A stretch of 64,000 bases of DNA from positions 1 through 64,000 of the forward strand of contig CAWHHI010000013.1 in the NCBI GenBank assembly GCA_963829055.1. Direction: 5' to 3'. The notes under the pieces are model-generated. The model did not search any database, was not told the origin of the DNA, and saw only the letters and a list, made by a program, of their open reading frames with translations. How positions within the stretch are numbered: position 1 is the first letter of the stretch; every line of letters begins with the position of its first letter. Shown one piece after another: positions 9,818 through 20,503 of this stretch. The stretch comes from an uncultured Gemmatimonadaceae bacterium. Lineage in GTDB: Bacteria; Gemmatimonadota; Gemmatimonadetes; Gemmatimonadales; Gemmatimonadaceae. Made by a program: the position numbers and the translations under genes.

Positions 9818-12707
9818 TTGCGTCCCGTGTCCGGTGCCCAACCGCCCGAGTACTGGTCGCAACTCTCAGCGCGCATCGACGCCCTGCTCGACGCTGGCCC
9901 GGAGCGACGCCGCGAGCTCGTCGCCGAATGGAGTGCCGGCGACCCAGCGGTTCGGGCGGAGCTCGAGCGCCTTCTCGAGGATTGCGAGCGTGAGCCACCG
10001 CTGCTCGATCGACCGGCCGCCGAACGCTTCGCCGAGCTGCTCGAGACCCAGAGTGCGCGATTCCCGGAAGCGCTGGCGGAGCGCTATCACCTAACGCGCG
10101 AGCTGGGTCGTGGCGGGATGGCGACCGTCTATCTCGCCCGCGACATCAAGCACGCGCGCGATGTCGCCGTGAAGGTCATCCATCCGGCGCTGGCGTCGGC
10201 GTCCGGCAGCGATCGGTTCCTGCACGAGATCAGGGTCGTCGCCAGCCTGCATCACCCGCACATCGTGCCGCTGTTCGATTCGGGGAACGTCGACGGCGCG
10301 CTGTACTACGTCATGCCGTACGAGACGGGGCCCTCGCTGCGGCAGCGGCTGTCACGGGACGGCGCGCTCCCGCTGGACGACGCGGTGATCATCCTGCGCG
10401 ACGTGTGCGATGCGCTGGCGCACGCGCACCAGCACGGAATCGTCCATCGCGACATCAAGCCCGACAACGTCCTGCTGTCGGGCCGCCACGCGATGGTCAC
10501 CGACTTCGGCGTCGCCAAGGCGCTCATCGCGGAGGACGAATCGCTTCCGGACGCCGGGAACTCCATCAGCGTCATCGCTGCGAACGCCACTACGACAATG
10601 AGCTCGGTGTTAGGCACGCCCGCCTACATGGCGCCGGAACAGATTGCGGGCGATCCGAATATCGATCACCGCGCGGACATCTACTCGGTCGGGGTGCTGG
10701 GGTACGAGCTCCTCGCGGGGCGACCACCGTTCGTCGGCAACACCCGCGAGGATGTCCTTGCGGGACACCTGACGGCGACGCCCGTGCCGGTGACGCTTCA
10801 CCGCTCAGACGTGCCTGCGCCTCTCGCCGAGTTGGTGATGAAGTGCCTCGAGAAGCACGCGTCCGATCGTTGGCAGCACGCCGAGGAGATCGTCGAGCGG
10901 CTCGAGGATCTGGCCATCGCCCGGCGTCACCCCACGCTACCACGTTCGCTATCGCGACGCGCGCGGTGGTCTGCGGCGATCGCAGGCCTCGTGGGAGTTA
11001 CCGCCGTCGTGCTCATTGCGCGGCAGCGGACGATCGCACCTAACGACACGTGGCGAAACCGGTGGGCGAACGCGCGTGTCGAACGACTCACGGACTTCCC
11101 CGGCTCCGAGGTTGACGCCGCGATCTCGGCCGATGGTCAATCAGTCGCGTTCCTGGCCGATCGGGACAGTGTGTTCGACGCGTTCGTGACGCGTGTGGGT
11201 AGCGGGCAATTCCTCAACCTCACCGGCGGCCGGCTCCCGCAGTTGTTCAACGAAGACGTGCGGAACGTCGGGTTCTCCGGTGACGGCGCACACGTCTGGA
11301 TCCGCGTGGCCGATATCTCATCGCCTGCAAGCGTGTCGCTGGCCCCGACCGGCGGCGGGCCGCTCGAGCCATTTCTGCGAACGGCGGTGATGGCCGTGTG
11401 GTCGCCGGACGGGTCGCGGATCGCGTATCACGAGACCACGCCGGGGGATCCGATCTACGTCGCGGACGCGAACGGTGGGAACGCGCGGCGGATCTTCGTG
11501 GGAGAAGCCGGCGTTCACTGTCATCACCTGAGCTGGTCGCCGGACGGGCGGTATCTGTATTTCAGCCGTGGTGCGCCGCCTAACGACATGGACGTCTGGC
11601 GCGTCCCATCCGGTGGTGGATCCGCCGAGCGCATGACGATGCACCACTCGCGTGTGTCGTACCCCGTATTGCTCGACGACCGGACGCTGCTCTACACGGC
11701 GACGGCGGACGATGGCACCGGCCCGTGGCTGTACTCCATGGACGTGAACGAGCCGCGTACCTGAGCGCGTCAACATGACGGTCGAGCACTACATCTCGAT
11801 TGCGGCTGCCGCCGCGGCTCGCGGGCAGTCCAGGCGGCTGGTGGCGACGGTGTCGAACCCGACGGTCGACCTGTGGACCGTGCCGATCGCGAATGGGATT
11901 GCGGGAGAGGCGTCGGCGAGCCGCGTGCCGCTGCCCACGGCGCGCGCGGCCGCGCCCCGGTTCGGTCCCGACGGCGCACTGTTCTACCTGGCGTCGCGTG
12001 GCGGTGCGGACGCGGTGTGGCGTCTGTCGAGCACCGACACGACCCAGCTATGGAAGGCACCCGAGGGCGCCGTGGCCGGTGCAGTGGCGGTGTCGCCTAA
12101 CGGGAGTCAGGTCTGCTTCCCCGTGCGACGGCGGGGTCGCTCGACCCTGTACTGCGCGTCCGCTCAGGGAACCGGCGCGCGTGCGGTCGCCGAGTCGCTC
12201 GACGTGAAGAGCCCGGCCTCGTGGTCGCCGGACGGCAGATGGATCGCGATTGCCGCGGCCGATGGCGGAGGCAGCCGCCTGTTCAAGATTCCAATCGACG
12301 GCGGACCACCCGTCAGGCTGGTGGACTCGGTATCGTCCAATCCGGTGTGGTCGCCTAACGGCAAGCTCATTCTCTACTCGGGCGTCCCACGTGCCCGGAG
12401 CGTGCCGGTCAAGGCGGTGACCCCCGAGGGACAGCCGTATCCGCTGCCGGCGATCTCGGTCGATCGCGTGGGCGACAGCTACCGATTTCTTCCAGGCGGA
12501 GACGCGATCGTGCTGAAGCTCGGCGGCTTCCGGAGTCAGGATTTCTGGCTGCTCGACGTATCGACGGGCCAGCGGCGCCGACTGACGACACTCAGGCGCG
12601 GCGAGTCGCTTCACCGATTCGACATATCGCCGGACGGGAAGCGGATCGTGTTCGAGCGGGTGCGCGAGAACTCCGATATCGCCATGATTACGCTTCCGCC
12701 ACGCTAG
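9818..12707 (+). CDS. Hanks-type Ser/Thr kinase with TM helix and TolB/PD40 beta-propeller sensor (frameshift near 11760)
   Basis: GRGGMATVY, VAVK, HRDIKPDN, DFG, GTPAYMAPEQ; WSPDG repeats continue in ORF 11775-12707. Confidence 0.9.
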
Positions 12708-12709
12708 GA

Positions 12710-12851
12710 TGTCATTCCGAGCGCGGTCGTCATTCCGAGCGAGCGAGGGGAGGCGAGTCGAGGAATCCTTGGCGTCACGGTAGAGAGCCCTCTACTCCGC
12801 AGGCCGAGGATTCCTCGACTCCGCCGCTCCGCGGCTCCGCTCGGAATGACA
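12710..12851. repeat. REP-like palindrome family A (TGTCATTCCGAGCG..GTCGAGGAATC..GATTCCTCGAC..CTCGGAATGACA)
   Basis: Inverted arms with central GTAGAG-AGCC-CTCTAC hairpin; starts 3 nt after the kinase stop. Confidence 0.9.
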
Positions 12852-13269
12852 CGGCTCCTCGACTGCGCCTCCGTCCCGCTCGATAGCCTAACGCGTGGTG
12901 CATTCGTTAGTGGCGCTATGGCCAGCTCGCTTCGACGCCGCACCGCCATCGTCAGGCGCTAACTATCAAGCAGGCTCATCAGATGTACGCCGACTAACCG
13001 GCGTTCCTGCCGTCATCCTCTTGCGGACGCTCTCGGTCAGATCGATGTTCTCGACGACGCTACGAACCTTCTTCGGCCCGCGCTGACTCGGTAATCCAGG
13101 CGCCTCCACTTCGCCGAAACGTATGGGACGATTGCGCGAGATGGGTTGCGAAAGGCGGAGCGATTACCGCAGCGCATCTGTACGTCTTCGCGTCGACGCG
13201 ATGCGTCACAGCCCGCGGTGCGCACCGACGGCGACCACTCACCAGACTCTCACAGAGGAGTGTGACCAC

Positions 13270-13473
13270 ATGAAGCGACCGGGCGACAAGTCACCTGATC
13301 CGCCGGGCGGCCGGGCCGCGGAGCGCCTGCGCCAGTTCGAGGACGCGCGTCTCCCTCCAGCGGAGCGCGAAGAGCGTGAACGCCGCGAAGAGCGCGCCCA
13401 GGACGCGGAAAAACCCACGCGCACCAACAAGAAGAAAAAAACAAAAAGCGAGCGAAAAGACGGAGAAGGCTGA
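13270..13473 (+). CDS. Small highly charged hypothetical protein (PPGGRAAERLRQFEDAR motif)
   Basis: GAGGAG RBS at 13255-13260; its motif recurs in the N-terminus of the next gene. Confidence 0.7.
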   Translation: MKRPGDKSPDPPGGRAAERLRQFEDARLPPAEREERERREERAQDAEKPTRTNKKKKTKSERKDGEG

Positions 13474-13497
13474 GCATACCCCGGATGCGGAGGGGAC

Positions 13498-16063
13498 ATG
13501 AAAGGACCGTTGGAGGAGGTACCACGAGAAACCGGACGAACACGAACTCGGCCCAAGCCCGAGGGTGGGAAGGCGCTGGCACGACTCGAACTGTTCCTCG
13601 CGGCACGAGGCCTCGGCGAGGCGGCGGAGGAGGTCGTCGCACCCGTGGCTCGCGGGCGCGGACGAAAGCGCGCGACTCGAGCTCGCGGCGGAGCGGCGCC
13701 CAATATCGGCGCTCTCTATGCAGCAACGGCCGAAGCGCTGCATCCCGCGGCCGACGAAGATGCGCCGAGCGAAGTACCACGGACACGGCGGAAACGGGCA
13801 ACAGCAGCGGCGGAACCGGCTGAAACGGCAGCGCCCCCTCCTGCCCCATTCAACCCGGCACTCGGACCAGGGTGGCGCTCGTTAGGCCCGGAGTACATGG
13901 CGAACGGCCAGACGTATGGCTCGAGCCGAGTCGACGTGTCGGGTCGTATCGCGGCGATCGCCATTGACCCACGCAATGCCAATCACATCCTCGTGGGCTC
14001 CGCGGCAGGCGGGATCTGGGAAACGCGTGATCGCGGTGCGTCCTGGTCGCCGCGATCCGACTTCGCGCCGACGCTGACGACGGGCGCGATCGCGTTCGAT
14101 CCGACCGCACCCGCAACCGTCTATTGCGGAACAGGCGAAGGGAATTGGTGGGCGCGGCTCGGGGCGGGCGTGATGCGGTCGACCGACGGCGGCACGACGT
14201 GGACGGTCATCGCGGGTGCTCCTTTCGTCGGGCAGGGGTTCTACGACCTGGTGGTGGACCGCGCCAATCGAATGCACCTGCTGGCCGGCACCACGAACGG
14301 GCTATACGAGTCGGCAAACGGCGGCGTCACGTGGACCGCCCGCCGCAACGCGCGCACGTGGGACCTGTCGATGGCGACCGGCGAGGTTCTCGCCGCCTGC
14401 CCCGATGGCGTTTTTCGCTCGACGAATGGCGGAACGACGTGGGCGGCCGTCACGCTTCCCGGCGCGCCGCCAGGGGGCTTCGACCGCCTCGCGGTCTCGC
14501 ACGCGCCATCGACGCCCGCCGTCGCCTACGCGTTCGGCGCGAGCGGCACAGCGGGTTTCCTCTGGCGTCGTGCCACCGCTGGCGGCGCGTGGACGGCCGT
14601 GACGCCACCCGCCGGACTCTCGACCGGGCAGGCATGGTACGACTGGTTTCTTGGCGTCGCGCCTAACAACGGCAATCGGATCTACGTCGCGGGCATTGAA
14701 GTCTATCGCGGCGAGCTGTCCGGCACGACGTGGACCTGGGTGAACATCAGCAACAAGGGGGCGACAGGCGACTCGATTCACCCCGACCAGCATGCCATCG
14801 CGTTCGATCCCGTCACGCCGGACACGATCTATGTCGGATGCGACGGCGGCTTGTTCCAGTCACCCAATCGCGGGACGAACTGGACGTCGCTCAACCGCGG
14901 ACTGGCGATCACGGAGATCGAGTACCTCGATCACGACATCGGCTCATCGCGCTATCTACTGGCCGGCACGCAGGACAACGGCTCCATCCGCTACACTGGC
15001 TCCGCGGTGTGGGAACACGCGGCCGACGGTGACGGCGGCGATTGCAGCGTCGGGACGGTCGTGCCCACGACCGTGTTCCATTCCTTCTTCGGCATGGGAA
15101 TGGAGCGCAGCACCACGAAGGGGAATTTCGGGTCGTGGGGGTGGATCGGGCCGAACGTTCCCGCAAACTACAATGCGCTCTTCTATCCTCCGCTGGAGAC
15201 ACAAGGCGCGTCGGTCGCACAGGCCGGGCAGAGCGTCTTCATCTCGCGCAACAGCGGCACGGCGTGGACCGAAATCGCCCTGCCGGCCGGATGTACGGGG
15301 AGCGCGATGGAGATGCCGACACCCGACCAGGTACTCGTGGGGTGTACGAACGGCCGCATCTTCCGACTGACGTGGTCGGGCGCGGCATGGTCAGCGGCGG
15401 CGGCACTCACGACGCCGCGGGCGGGAGCGTGGATCAGTGACATCAGTTGCCACGCCTCCAATCCCAACCGGATCTGGGCGACGTCTACATCGTTAGGCGG
15501 CGCGCGGGTGTGGCGATCCGACAACGGCGGGACCACGTGGACCGACACGTCGGCCGGCCTTCCGGCCCTTCCACTCAATAGCGTGGAGGTCGACGCATTG
15601 AACCTCAACCGCATTCGGGTTGCGGCCGATCTCGGCGTCTTCCAATCGCTGGATGCCGGGGCGACATGGGCCACGTACACGAACGGGCTTCCGAACTCGT
15701 TCGTTGGGGACCTCGGTGTTCCACCCGCACGCGCGTGTGTTGCGCGCCGGCATGCGAAACCGCGGCGTCTGGGAGATCCCGGTCGACGGGTGGATGACCA
15801 CGCCGGTCGTGGGTACCCAGTGGACCGGCACCATCCCGGCCAATGCCACGCAGAACTGGTTCACGTTCAACTGGCCGGCGACGTGGCACATGCTGTGGAC
15901 TGTGATGCCCACGACCCCGCAACCCGGGGCGCCGGAACTGACGTTCGACGTCCGCGTCGAGCGGGCGACGGCGGAGTTCGCCACGTACTGGATCCAGGTC
16001 CGCAACCTAACGCCGGTGCCAGTCGCGTTCGAGGGCCGGTACGCCATTCTCAGCAGATACTAA
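13498..16063 (+). CDS. Large BNR/Asp-box beta-propeller protein (VPS10/GH74/YCF48-like fold) with C-terminal Trp-rich domain (frameshift near 15712)
   Basis: At least 8 Asp-box motifs (TRDRGASW, STDGGTTW, SANGGVTW, STNGGTTW, SPNRGTNW, SRNSGTAW, SDNGGTTW, SLDAGATW), IHPDQHAI, GTQDNG; C-terminus lies in ORF 15620-16063. Confidence 0.85.
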
Positions 16064-16072
16064 GGGGGAGCG

Positions 16073-16328
16073 ATGTTTACCGGAGTGCAATTCACGGGAA
16101 CGCTGGGACCTAACGCGTCGAACCGCTGGTTCACGTTCAACTGGCAATCCCGCCTGGCATGTGGTCTGGCACGTCATGCCGATCACTCCGAAGTCGGGCG
16201 CGCCGGAGCTCGACTGGAACGTGTCCGTCGAGCGCGCGAGCCCCACCGGCGTGACATACTGGATCAACGTGACGAACCTGACGAATCAGAGCGTGGACTT
16301 CGAAGGGCGATTCGTCGTACTCAACTGA
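16073..16328 (+). CDS. Small (~84 aa) Trp-rich beta protein, stand-alone copy of the preceding C-terminal domain (one extra base near 16145)
   Basis: Removing one C gives MFTGVQFTGTLGPNASNRWFTFNWNPAWHVVWHVMPITPKSGAPELDWNVSVERASPTGVTYWINVTNLTNQSVDFEGRFVVLN*; GGGGGAG RBS. Confidence 0.8.
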
Positions 16329-16336
16329 GGAGAGCC

Positions 16337-16615
16337 ATGCGCATCATCATTGAAGTGGAGGGCGGCGGCACGAACCAGCCGGAGATTGTGCTGCGCTCCT
16401 CGTCGTCCGGGCAGAGCACGACGGACGGCATCGCCAAGTCACCCGGTGCGCGCGCGGGTGGAGGAATCGACGCCGGCCCAGCGCCAACCGGTGATTCCGG
16501 CGCGCAGACATTGCAGGCAATGGGTAACGTGGTCGGGCTTTCGGCCGCCGGTACCTCGGACGCGGCGGGTGCGCAGTCTGCGGGCGCGGCACCATCATCG
16601 GACGCTGGAGGATGA
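16337..16615 (+). CDS. Small Gly/Ala/Ser-rich hypothetical protein
   Basis: GAGGAG RBS; MRIIIEVEG start then low-complexity sequence with DAGPAP and SAGAAP. Confidence 0.65.
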   Translation: MRIIIEVEGGGTNQPEIVLRSSSSGQSTTDGIAKSPGARAGGGIDAGPAPTGDSGAQTLQAMGNVVGLSAAGTSDAAGAQSAGAAPSSDAGG

Positions 16616-16616
16616 G

Positions 16617-16890
16617 ATGTTCGAGCTAATCCCCTGCATCGTCGGCGCGTTCGTGTCGGCCGTACTCGCGACGCGGATCCGCCTGACGAGTCGCATTGTC
16701 GTCGCGGCGTTGGCGGGTGTGGCCGTAGCGGTTGCCTCGGGCGAGGCAGCTGCGTGGGCGCCGGCGGTGCTGCTCGACTCGATGCTTGCCGCGGCAGCGT
16801 GCGTCGTCGTTCGCGGTGACGCGTCAGCGCATCGCAGCGGCGGGCCTGAACCGCCGGGCCATTGCAGCTGTAGCGCCCAAGGCGTAGTTA
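16617..16890 (+). CDS. Small membrane protein (3' end uncertain)
   Basis: ATG 1 nt after the previous stop; three hydrophobic stretches MFELIPCIVGAFVSAV... Confidence 0.5.
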
Positions 16891-16908: not shown

Positions 16909-17075
16909 TGTCATTCCGAGCGGGTCGTCATTCCGAGCGGAGCCGCGAAGCGGCGGAGTCGAGGAATCGGTGTCATTCCGAGCGAAGTCGAGGAATCCCG
17001 ATCGTCCCGGCAGAGGGACCTCTCTACCCGCACGGTCGCGATTCCTCGACTCGCTGCCGCTCGCTCGGAATGACA
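16909..17075. repeat. REP-like palindrome family A cluster
   Basis: Three GTCATTCCGAGCG starts and one CTCGGAATGACA end, between convergent genes. Confidence 0.9.
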
Positions 17076-17106: not shown

Positions 17107-19408
17107 CTAGCCGTGGGCGCTTCCGGAATCCGTCGTCCTGCCAACCGCGCCCGCGAGCTGTTTCCCGACTGGGAGCTGTCGGATTCGTACCTTCGTCGCC
17201 GCGTAGATCGCGTTGCATAACGCCGCTCCGGATGGCGGAACACCCGGCTCACCGATGCCGCCCGGCAGCGCCTCGCTCTCCACCAGATGCACGTCGACGA
17301 CGTGCGGCGCCGCGCGCATCCGCGTCACCTGATACGTCGGATAGTTCGCCTGCACGACGCGCCCGTCCTTGAAGCTGATCTCGGAGTAGAGCGTGTTGCT
17401 CATGCCCATGATCACCGCGCCTTCCATCTGCGAGCGCGCACGGTCGGGGTTCGCGACGAATCCAGCGTCGACGGCTACGGTTGCCTTTGGAACCGTGACC
17501 GTACCATCAGCGGCAACGTCGACCTCGACGACCATCGCCACATAGCTCAGAAAGCTCCGGTGCATCGCGATGCCGCGGCCGCGACCGTTAGGCAGCGGCG
17601 TGCCCCATCCTGACTTCTGCATCGCGAGCTCGACGACGTGCCGCGCGCGCGCAATGTCGAGCGGATAGTCGTCCCACGTGCCGCCATAGTTGCTGGCCGG
17701 CGCGACGAGTCCGTCCTTCGAGAGGTCGACGGTGCGGTTGGGGCCGAGCAACGCGAGGAGGAAGCGCGCCGGGTCCTTCCCCGCTTCGACGGCCAGCTCG
17801 TCCACGAACGAGCCGATGGCGAACCCGTGGTGAATGGCGTTCACGGAGCGATACCAGCCAATGCGCGTGTACGCCTTGGCCGGGCAGATCTCGACGCTCA
17901 CGTTGGGAATCGCGAATGGGATGTCGCTGGCGCCATTCGTCAGCTCGTCGGGGCCCGAGCCTTCGACGTTAGGCGCGAACGTCGCGTCGATCGCTGGGTG
18001 CGCGACGCGATGACGCCACGCCGTCACGGTTCCGTTCGCGTCCAATCCCGGCTTCGAGTCGGTGCGCCGCCACCGTGTGGTAGTAGCTGTTGCGCAGGTC
18101 GTCTTCCCGGGTCCACTGCACCCGCACGGGGGCTCCCACTTCCTTCGAGAGCCACGCGGCCTCGGCGACGAAGTCCGGCTTGGACTTTCGCCCGAACGCG
18201 CCGCCTAACAACGTCACGTTCACCGTGACGTTCGCGATGTCGATCTTGAGGTAGTCGGCGATCACCTTCCGCGCGTCCTGCGGCGACTGCGTCGGCGCCC
18301 ACGTTTCGAGCTTCCCGTCCGCGAAGCGCGCGATGGCGGCGACGGGCTCCATCTGTGCATGCGACAGATGCGGCATGTAGTACTCGCGCTCGAGCCGCTT
18401 GGGCGCCGCGGCCAGCGCGCGCTCGGCGTCGCCGATCGTGCGCCCAGGCTTCCCGGGCTTGCGCACCGACTCCTCGAGCGTCGCCTTGTAGGCGACGGAG
18501 TCGTAACCCGCGTTCGGACCGTCCTCCCAGACGATCTCGAGCGCCTCGCGCCCCTTGATCGCCGCCCAGGTATTCTTCGCGACGACCGCGATGCCGCCTA
18601 CCGTGTTGTAGCCGGCGGGAATGGGCGGCTCGGGAATGTGGATCACCTTCTCCACACCCGGGATCGCGAGCGCTGCCTTGGCGTCGAACGACTTGACCTT
18701 CCCACCCCACACGGGAGGATGCGCGATCACCGCGGTCTTCATGCCGGGAAGGCGGACGTCCGCGCCGTAGGTCGCCGTGCCCGTGGTCATCGGCACGAGA
18801 TCGATCGACGGCATCTTCTTGCCCTGCCAGCGGCGACTGACCGGACGCTTGACTCGCACTCGAGACTTGTCGGGCATGGGCAACGTCCGCGCGGTCGCGA
18901 CCAGCGCGCCGAAGCCGAGTGTCCGCCGAGTGCGGTCGTGCACGACCTGATGCTGTCGCGCACGCACCGTCTTCACGTCTACTCCCCACTCTTTCGCCGC
19001 CGCATTCTCGAGCAGCGCGCGAACGGTCGCTCCGGCCTCGCGATACTTGGCCAGGAAGAGACGAATGCTCGTCGACCCATCGGTGTTCTGCGAACCGTAC
19101 TTCGTCTCATCGCCGACGGCCTGCGCCACGCGACAGCGCGACCAGTCCGCTTCCATCTCGTCGGCGATGATGAGCGGCATCGTCGTGCGGATGCCCTGCC
19201 CCATCTCGGACCGGTGACAGATGATCGTGACGGTGCCATCCTCGTGCAGCGTGACGTACGCGTGCGGCGAGAACGGGTCGGCCAGCGACGCCGCGAGCGA
19301 CTCGACGTCATCGAGACGGCGGATGCCTAACGGGCCGGCGGCGATCACGAGACCACCCACGCCGAGCATCTGCACGAAGCGGCGACGTTCCATGTCGGGC
19401 TGTGTCAT
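17107..19408 (-). CDS. iorB: Xanthine dehydrogenase family molybdopterin-binding subunit, IorB-like (frameshift near 18045)
   Basis: Tat-like [50 protein letters not shown]. Confidence 0.85.
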
Positions 19409-19860
19409 GACGATTTCTCCGCCGCCGCCTTGATGGCCGAGCGGATGCGGGGGTAGGTACCGCACCGGCAGATGTTCCCGTTCATGGCGTTGTCGATCTG
19501 CTGATCCGTCGGCTTCGGCGTGCTCCCGAGCAACTCGGCGGCCTTCATGATCTGCCCTGACTGGCAGTAGCCGCACTGCGGGACATCGATCTCGCGCCAC
19601 GCGACCTGGAGCCGGTGCTCGCCCTTGGGGTGGAGCCCTTCGATGGTCGTGACGCCCCGCCCTTCCAGATCCGACATCTTCGTCTGGCAGGCGCGAACCG
19701 CGCGGCCTTCGACGTGAACCGTGCACGCGCCGCAGGACCCGACGCCGCAACCGTACTTCGTGCCGGTGAGCTCGAGGTCGTCGCGGAGGTACCAGAGCAG
19801 CGGCATCGCGGGATCGCCGTCGAATGTTCGGCGCGCCCCGTTGACAGTCAGGGAGATCAT
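19405..19860 (-). CDS. iorA: (2Fe-2S)-binding subunit, IorA/CoxS-like
   Basis: [32 protein letters not shown]; overlaps the iorB start. Confidence 0.9.
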
Positions 19861-19977
19861 TGGTTTTTCTCGTGGGTGACGGACAGCGTGTGCTCGCTGA
19901 ACGGCGCGTAGACCAGCCGCGACGTTCGGGGCATGCGGAAATTGCGTCCGAGTCTCTCGCTTCGGAATAGGTATCCC

Positions 19978-20503
19978 ATGGACTTCGACTTGAACGCCGG
20001 AATTGCGATCCTGGAACGCACACCGGCCACCTTCCGGGCGATGCTGGCTGGGCTGCCACCCATGTGGACCGACGCCACCGAGGGGCCGGATACGTGGAGC
20101 CCCTATGTCATCATGGGGCACCTGATCCACGCCGAGCGCACGGACTGGATCACGCGCGCGGAGATCATCCTGGCGCAGGGTCCGAACCGTCGCTTCACGC
20201 CGTACGATCGCTTCGCGCAGTTCCGCGACAGCAAGGGCAAATCGCTCGCCGAGCTCCTCGACGAATTCGAGCGCGTGCGTGCCGAGAACGTTGCGACGCT
20301 CTGGCGATGGAAGCTGACCGATGCGCAGCTCGCGCTGGAGGGCGAACACCCGGCATTCGGGCCGGTCACGCTGCGGCAACTACTGGCCACGTGGGTCGCG
20401 CATGACCTCGGGCACGTGGCCCAGGCTGCTCGCGTCATGGCGAAGCAGTACCGCGAGGCGGTTGGCCCGTGGCGCGCGTACCTGCCCGGTCATGGATCGC
20501 TGA
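19978..20503 (+). CDS. DinB/YfiT family protein
   Basis: [37 protein letters not shown]; likely frameshift just before the stop. Confidence 0.85.

Follow-up and report, generated by a model that had tools for sequence, protein, structure and literature searches.

A widespread but rare cassette of interchangeable cargo, small jelly-roll domain and motif peptide at a Gemmatimonadaceae locus

Contig CAWHHI010000013.1 of assembly GCA_963829055.1, from an uncultured Gemmatimonadaceae bacterium, was analyzed over its first 64,000 nucleotides, the whole of which is referred to here as the window. It contains five co-oriented genes, numbered 1 to 5, that raise a question: why is a domain of 84 amino acids (aa) encoded twice in a row, once at the C-terminus of a large Asp-box propeller (gene 2) and once as a gene of its own (gene 3), and what is the role of the low-complexity peptide encoded directly behind it (gene 4)? 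The set is completed by genes for a short charged peptide (gene 1) and a small membrane protein (gene 5). A first reading, made from the letters of the window alone (the sequence-only reading), took the five genes for a fixed unit built around the propeller, which turned out not to be so: gene 1 accompanies only the propeller, the gene 5 slot is variable, and the propeller itself is replaceable. The constant core consists of a cargo with the C-terminal domain, the standalone copy of the domain and gene 4. The cassette is an undescribed, widespread but rare system of cargo, tag and peptide; no description of it, including its motif strings, was found in the open-access literature of PMC and bioRxiv, subscription papers and supplements being outside the scope of that search. 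The novelty lies in the gene system, the fold of the propeller being a known one; the mechanism outlined below is a proposal.

Constant core and interchangeable cargo

In GTDB genomes a scan found 190 stretches that match; the best 80 of them, a set biased towards the propeller type, were analyzed as loci. These 80 loci span at least 12 phylum labels, and the expectation that the genes of the module co-occur in other genomes was borne out across phyla. All 80 contain two adjacent copies of the domain, and 49 of 50 of these genomes have exactly two, the exception adding a fusion with a helix-turn-helix (HTH) domain. Gene 4, recognized by its N-terminal strand and at least one motif, is present in 75 of the 80 loci versus 1 of 850 control positions. 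The cargo matches the propeller in 76 loci and only its tail in one; one further locus has a subtilase and two have protein glutaminases. The cassette was not found in 60 relatives or in 300 genomes of the window's own phylum. Random samples gave matches in 5 of 400 genomes in the genus of genome G075, and in 3 of 300 and 2 of 300 genomes of two other phyla, rates which are lower bounds (13–18 candidates were scored per genome) and which include two matches of a sister family and two weak ones, in G364 and G517, dismissed as chance on inspection. Cultured hosts among the loci belong to Kribbella, Streptomyces, Agromyces, Larkinella, and Hymenobacter. From this sporadic pattern horizontal transfer is inferred as the likely source of the patchy spread.

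The cargo is interchangeable. A search with a profile of the domain over 1.84 billion representatives returned 307 matches, 150 of them listed, and 68 of the longer ones together with four open reading frames (ORFs) from the loci made up 72 domain-bearing proteins that were scanned for known families, the best five families being taken per protein. The question of whether other enzymes end in the same domain received a positive answer: subtilase, protein glutaminase, M64, astacin, M12/M7-like, and trypsin representatives were found. Non-enzyme carriers include HTH proteins, other propellers (two of which, P0217 and P0251, have the domain at both ends), a coiled-coil protein, and fibre-like proteins, the last two being capped by it. 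An apparent tandem of both domains, P0020, looks like a read-through from gene 2 into gene 3 and was left out of the count of natural fusions. A gene-4-like ORF accompanies the cargo in 9 of the 11 non-propeller loci, namely those with subtilases (L075, L113, L114), glutaminases (L080, L081), an astacin (L088), and NAL1-N-like proteases (L090, L091, L101); of the remaining two, the contig of L100 ends and L123 uses another partner. In the astacin cassette (L088:93-2119, genome G111) the order is permuted, the cargo being followed by the motif peptide, the standalone domain, and then a signal-less YscW/YbaY-like protein.

The propeller of the window is best compared with the GH74 xyloglucanases (6p2k, 6p2n, 2cn2). 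The model of gene 2, with a predicted local distance difference test score (pLDDT) of 86.5, shares with them the double seven-bladed Asp-box propeller (Z 30.8, root-mean-square deviation (rmsd) 3.9, 600 residues aligned; Foldseek E 4e-31); it differs in being only 17–21% identical and in lacking a signal peptide. The Asp of the N-terminal ARxDxGG motif is catalytic in GH74 enzymes, whereas its counterpart here is Ala169, and Ala occupies this position in 40 of 40 family members. A xyloglucanase role of the GH74 type was rejected, as the first catalytic Asp is absent. The family has an invariant set of its own, QxWYDW, IHPDxH, GTQDNG, and HxxDxDGG, whose His/Asp clusters suggest another ligand or chemistry, and the propeller itself may be an enzyme. 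Two N-terminal helices (residues 24–36 and 70–81), modelled with moderate to high confidence between disordered linkers, would dock on the propeller.

The jelly-roll domain and the AGxAP motif

Gene 3 does repeat the C-terminal domain of gene 2, as the sequence-only reading had claimed, with 54% identity over both pieces. The standalone domain was modelled on a homologue, P0015, with an alignment of 86 sequences, and its predicted fold is a six-strand sandwich (pLDDT 97). Three copies of P0015 reached a complex score of 0.94, with 0.00 for the best control, 100% agreement of contacts between runs and pLDDT of at least 95. Among benchmark proteins, 20 of 30 that were solved as pairs attain the same mark, as does 1 of 23 solved as single chains, counts that are only roughly valid for three copies and a custom alignment. 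The domain is therefore predicted to self-associate as three copies. The predicted contacts run head-to-tail through two different faces, the loop 33–47 packing on strand 49–57 of the neighbor. Among the contacts listed, residues 1, 31, and 83 occupy both faces, which would suit a closed three-fold ring with the N-termini near the axis at least as well as an open chain.

The two copies of the domain are not recent duplicates of each other. In 79 of 80 cases the nearest neighbor of a standalone copy is another standalone copy, across phyla, the astacin locus L088 being the exception, and the same nearness holds for three of the four non-propeller cargos. Mean identity of the standalone copies is 59% to their own neighbor and 64% to other standalone copies. 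The standalone and fused copies are two separate, specialized subfamilies. Position 33, which lies in the predicted interface, is Tyr in 72 of 76 standalone and Thr in 75 of 77 fused copies.

The domain maps to no characterized family, whereas a match to a characterized monomeric module would have spoken against the sequence-only reading: neither it nor the products of genes 1, 4, and 5 have a match above the cut-offs in Pfam, NCBIfam, PADLOC, or PHROG families. Foldseek found no match for the small domain in the PDB with E <= 0.001, and no solved relative was found by sequence. Fold comparison put GOLD domains first (Z 8.3), with all matches at or near background. Its Atlas neighbors at 0.97 are all hypothetical proteins; the nearest named clusters are H-type lectins (0.82–0.83), a lead only. 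A phage origin was rejected, there being no viral-contig relative (one pattern), no PHROG match, and no BFVD match with E <= 0.001.

Gene 4 encodes a disordered peptide with a recurrent pattern, an N-terminal MRIxIE strand followed usually by two [DSN]AGxAP motifs, whose median spacing from first to last is 37 residues. Its composition is 46% Ala, Gly, Pro, and Ser plus acidic residues, with almost no aromatics. The string AGPAP occurs in 37 of 72 gene-4 proteins versus 0.86 in shuffles, and at least two motifs are present in 58 of 81.

The motif reappears in a second setting. In some relatives of 140–180 aa, a Sec- or Tat-like signal is followed by a short extension and a single domain. When the 35 residues preceding the domain were searched with a weight matrix trained on the gene-4 motifs alone (threshold of at least 6 bits), a motif was found 4–17 residues ahead of the domain in 14 of 17 signal-bearing proteins, versus 1 of 169 other domain-bearing proteins; 13 of the 17 beat their own shuffles at p <= 0.05. 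No gene-4-like ORF was found in five loci of such single-gene forms (L089, L095–L098), and in a sixth, L099, the contig ends within the gene and one isolated motif match lies in an opposite-strand ORF. A domain with an export signal thus has the motif in cis, and one without such a signal has it in trans. Since it is fused to the domain in the signal-bearing relatives, gene 4 is the likely binding partner of the domain. Binding of some kind between motif and domain, which is common to the reading favored below and to the first two of its rivals, is considered quite probable, more so than any other single element of these readings. As to the hosts, the Tat-type single-gene form L089:1273-1758 stands beside a SARP-like regulator gene in a genome of the G075 genus, and the Sec-type forms L095–L099, which are Cys-paired, come from metagenome contigs; one member of their cluster is named Candidatus Eremiobacteraceae. 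Neither type is accompanied by a cargo or by gene 4.

Proposed mode of action and rival explanations

The reading favored here, if only tentatively, is a three-part kit in which trimers of standalone and cargo-fused domains are bound, and probably cross-linked, by gene 4. A swappable cargo without a signal would enter the complex through its C-terminal jelly-roll domain. The standalone and fused domains would co-assemble into mixed trimers, the places not open to a 70-kDa propeller being taken by free subunits. Gene 4 would bind the domain through its two AGxAP motifs, and as a two-motif linker it would tie trimers together into an enzyme-carrying complex, whose final location may lie outside the cytoplasm, with lysis or the variable small membrane proteins as candidate routes.

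The indications of the site of action are mixed. None of 86 full-length propellers was positive in a crude scan for hydropathy and twin arginines, in keeping with the lack of an evident export signal noted for the window propeller, and no cassette protein has an evident signal; the N-termini of the enzyme cargos whose starts were inspected are not signal-like. Pointing outward are the cargo families, which are normally secreted, the signal-bearing relatives, and a pair of Cys residues in the domain. Where the first Cys exists, a second goes with it in 36 of 86 domains (among signal-less fused copies, in 28 of 77); where the first is lacking, a second occurs in 1 of 129. This co-occurrence suggests a disulfide and an oxidizing destination. 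Pointing inward are the HTH fusions and the lack of a constant transporter. On balance, an extracytoplasmic or post-lysis site of action is considered fairly likely.

Several observations weigh against the three-part kit. Conservation is not raised at the predicted interface (0.66, versus 0.66 elsewhere in the domain), and it was dropped as support for the trimer. Fewer than two recognizable motifs are present in 23 of 81 gene-4 proteins, the peptide of L101 scores below the threshold, and L090, L091, and L101 have no standalone copy beside the cargo. The linker of the cis forms is as short as 4–6 residues, which fits a fold-back on their own trimer equally well as cross-linking. The choice of the 17 signal-bearing proteins was made by eye, with the motif already known, and covers only about four or five lineages; the 14 of them included in a weakly resolved tree of 85 columns fall in more than one place. 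The Cys counts are not phylogenetically independent. No constant export gene exists, all four of the membrane families described below being missing from 15 of the 80 loci. Finally, the HTH fusions and the sister system of L122 and L123 show other uses of the domain.

A bolder extension, regarded as unlikely, is that the cassette represents a minimal enzyme-packaging system in which trivalent trimers and a disordered two-motif linker would build a lattice, condensate, or fibre that exits without signal peptides. Any enzyme with the 84-aa tag could then be loaded, the exported single-gene versions would polymerize through their cis motif, and L122 and L123 would make the whole a superfamily.

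Among the alternatives to the three-part kit the one that survives best, itself not a likely one, is that the domain is a PPC-like or lectin-like binder of a substrate or surface, and gene 4 a propeptide or chaperone acting in trans, which plugs the binding site until release. The best fold matches include accessory domains at the C-termini of proteases: PPC, Tk-SP, and collagen-binding domains (9ues, 3afg, 3jqw, 1nqd) are small beta-sandwiches that end subtilases and metallopeptidases, as the domain does (Z 6.3–7.9), with the Tk-SP C-terminal jelly roll at Z 7.9 (rmsd 2.5, 75 residues aligned; near background) and the collagenase collagen-binding domains at Z 6.3–6.4. The motif of the signal-bearing forms occupies the position expected of a propeptide, and with gene 1, too, a pro-element would be provided in trans. 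The H-type lectins, being the nearest named Atlas clusters, point the same way as a lead only. H-type lectins are trimerizing six-stranded beta-sandwiches that bind Gal/GalNAc at subunit interfaces, and the domain may resemble them and trimeric fibre tips in its predicted six-strand beta-sandwich and three-copy assembly, and in its place at the end of fibre-like proteins. The matches themselves are at background level (discoidin I, 2w94, Z 5.6; R-pyocin fibre tips, Z 6.0–6.1; 3h6j, Z 5.3), the last being the neuraminidase of Pseudomonas aeruginosa, in which a propeller is joined to a similar C-terminal domain. What speaks against such a binder is that even the best fold match (Z 8.3) is at or near background, that identity to the PPC-type domains is 11–13%, and that Pfam gave no PPC match among the best five families of each of the 72 domain-bearing proteins or for P0015, and no H-type lectin match (PF09458) for the window domain or P0015. 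It also leaves unexplained why a standalone subfamily of its own should be matched one-to-one with the cargo, and gives no account of the conserved strand and the two motifs of gene 4; neither a standalone partner gene nor a motif peptide is known as a feature of PPC domains.

More doubtful still is polymerization of gene 3 into a filament, tube, or shell, which the cargo joins via its own copy and in which the motif or strand of gene 4 acts as a donor between subunits. It draws on the head-to-tail contacts through two faces, on the presence of Ena1 endospore-appendage subunits among the weak fold matches (Z 5.4), and on the resemblance of the signal-bearing single-gene forms, with their cis motif and no cargo, to pilin-like precursors. 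The placement of residues 1, 31, and 83 on both faces would rather fit a closed three-fold ring, as would the capping of fibre-like proteins by the domain, a role in which a closed trimer is to be expected; each genome has a single standalone gene, and none for assembly. The fibre-like proteins P0250, P0253, P0258, P0272, P0279, and P0287, most of them with signal peptides, have ADxLDG-type repeats, end in the domain, and lack the AGxAP motif.

The closest formal parallel to the doubled domain is found in the effector-associated domains (EADs) of ternary conflict systems, for which coupling by homotypic contact has been proposed (Kaur et al. 2020, PMC7159879), a principle also treated in PMC8195603. 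EADs are small, non-enzymatic domains that occur twice in adjacent genes, one copy being fused to variable enzymes, as in the cassette, whose domain is likewise small and apparently non-enzymatic. They are mostly alpha-helical, in contrast to the all-beta domain studied here, and their second copy is fused to a core of an NTPase system (VMAP, iSTAND, Ubl, GAP1), whereas that of the cassette is a bare 84 aa. The adjacent copies of the cassette belong, moreover, to two old subfamilies, and the cassette has a dedicated motif peptide and relatives with export signals. Of four defining features of EADs looked for in the cassette, the fusion to variable enzymes was found and the other three were not. 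A cytoplasmic conflict or signalling system on the EAD principle, with homotypic contacts recruiting a peptidase or other effector inside the cell, would suit the cassette proteins without evident signal, the variable fusions with a neighboring second copy, at least six HTH fusions and the sporadic distribution, and is nevertheless improbable, as clustering the neighbors of the 80 loci brought up no recurring NTPase or other core component, ten proteins gave 0 PADLOC matches (E 0.01, 2023 library), the adjacent copies are not mutual closest relatives, which is the opposite of the EAD rule, the cargos are of normally secreted families, and relatives carry Sec- or Tat-like signals and a Cys pair that suggests a disulfide.

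For the three-part kit a functional analogy is offered by the cellulosome. There, interchangeable hydrolases with a common terminal module are gathered, through cohesin-dockerin pairs, by a non-catalytic protein with repeated binding elements. No relationship of sequence or fold was found. The scaffold of the cassette would be a disordered peptide of 75–160 aa with linear motifs, and the cassette differs further in having no signal peptides, mostly peptidase cargos, and one cargo per genome.

In many bacteria there are genes for subtilases, astacins, M64 peptidases, protein glutaminases, and Asp-box propellers that lack signal peptides. To such proteins the cassette adds a common tag, the subunit in free form, and a possible peptide ligand. 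Should the binding be real, domain and peptide would form a docking pair of a new kind and a natural enzyme scaffold of small size, unrelated to cohesin-dockerin, with one motif serving exported proteins in cis and signal-less operons in trans. Since the cassette occurs in cultured strains of the five genera named above, genetics is feasible.

The locus, its accessory genes, and related systems

The features of the locus are collected in the table. The five genes are indeed co-oriented on the + strand with short spacers, each preceded by a purine-rich leader resembling a ribosome-binding site.

Table. Cassette features and flanking repetitive extragenic palindromic (REP) clusters, in window coordinates
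Feature	Position	Strand	Remarks
Gene 1	13270..13473	+	67-aa charged peptide; single conserved helix motif at 13300-13353
Gene 2 (cargo)	13498..16063	+	854 aa when read through; N-terminal helices, then GH74-like double seven-bladed Asp-box propeller, then C-terminal 84-aa domain; extra base at 15715
First helix of gene 2, PxGGKALxRL motif	13558..13611	+	part repeated by gene 1
Cargo-fused copy of Trp-rich six-strand jelly-roll domain	15806..16060	+	
Gene 3, standalone 84-aa domain copy	16073..16328	+	extra base ~16148; predicted self-associating
Gene 4, 92-aa low-complexity peptide	16337..16615	+	[DSN]AGxAP motifs at 16466-16486 and 16574-16594
Gene 5, ~89-aa small membrane protein	16617..16887	+	unnamed family; variable slot; extra base at 16807
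REP-type repeat clusters	~12710-12870 and ~16909-17075		genome-wide, not cassette-specific

As assembled, genes 2, 3, and 5 each contain one extra base (15715, 16148, and 16807), and genes 2 and 3 were translated through the frameshift with X, giving 854 and 84 aa. In short-read contigs of near-identical strains the base is missing from gene 2 in 3 of 4 DNA runs, from gene 3 in 4 of 4, and from gene 5 in both of the 2 runs covering that site; contigs from RNA runs concur for genes 3 and 5. As the bases are absent from these contigs and the protein set holds an intact 854-aa near-twin of gene 2 (P0021), the three single-base frameshifts are most likely assembly errors. True pseudogenes or programmed frameshifts were rejected on account of the missing bases and of a similar split in the upstream gene. 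That gene, for a Ser/Thr kinase with a PD40 propeller (9818-12707), consists of two ORFs here and of one 969-aa gene in the relative G001; a further indel error of the assembly is the probable cause. On the other side, a gene pair of the xanthine-dehydrogenase/isoquinoline-oxidoreductase type (17107-20379, minus strand) is, on inspection of its ORFs, apparently frameshifted as well.

The REP clusters that the sequence-only reading placed on both sides of the module are present and signify nothing special: with 290 such clusters in the genome, one per 27 kb, they are uninformative on the module, and the same number led to their rejection as ends of a mobile element. All read-level joints spanning the cassette have sides shorter than 32 letters and lie within repeats. 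At the relative locus L102 an unrelated gene lies 3' of the upstream kinase, and no clean empty site was established. At least half of the sampled words of the cassette were found in 14 DNA runs from rhizosphere, soil, and freshwater sediment. Parts of all five genes are covered between them by the contigs of four RNA runs from soil, which, DNA carry-over being possible, was not counted as evidence of expression.

Gene 1 repeats the first helix of gene 2, an N-terminal likeness already noticed in the sequence-only reading, and profile comparison upholds this (hhalign probability 96%, E 2.8e-9, 27 columns). The gene-1 motif scores at least 10 bits in the N-termini of 8 of 40 propellers versus 1 of 800 shuffles. 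Gene 1 is present in 59 of the 68 propeller loci with at least 1.1 kb upstream (4 of these matches being on the opposite strand), and it was not found in 15 locus records of non-propeller or secreted-form type; it is specific to the propeller cargo. As a trans copy of the propeller's first helix it could serve as a propeptide-like cap or a competitor for this cargo only.

The family of gene 5 occurs in 26 of the 80 loci (E 2e-7 for the window copy). Its slot, which lies beside gene 4 or gene 1 (loci L004–L083), is otherwise taken by two unnamed small membrane families (20 and 11 of 80 loci) or by TauE/SafE proteins (10 loci, in two of them distant). These membrane proteins could be export or lysis helpers.

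Proteins in which HTH_23 or HTH_29 is fused to the 84-aa domain (L044:9436-10143, P0154, P0155, P0158, P0167, P0256, and P0308) are possibly assembly-sensing regulators; that of L044 is encoded just 3' of a full cassette. A sister system built on the same principle, with a distant relative of the jelly roll, is found at two further loci; Pfam gave no name for their partners or for the other proteins of L122, and the tandem of L123 had one marginal match, to DUF6033. L122:5989-8810 (G1076) has a distant standalone relative, a partner of the same family as that of L123 (48% identity), and also a protein of 688 aa that bears no copy. At L123:3265-5616 (G1089) a standalone tandem of the distant relative stands with the 75-aa partner, which starts MKLSIISD, and with a signal-less M64 peptidase that ends in a 63%-identical copy.

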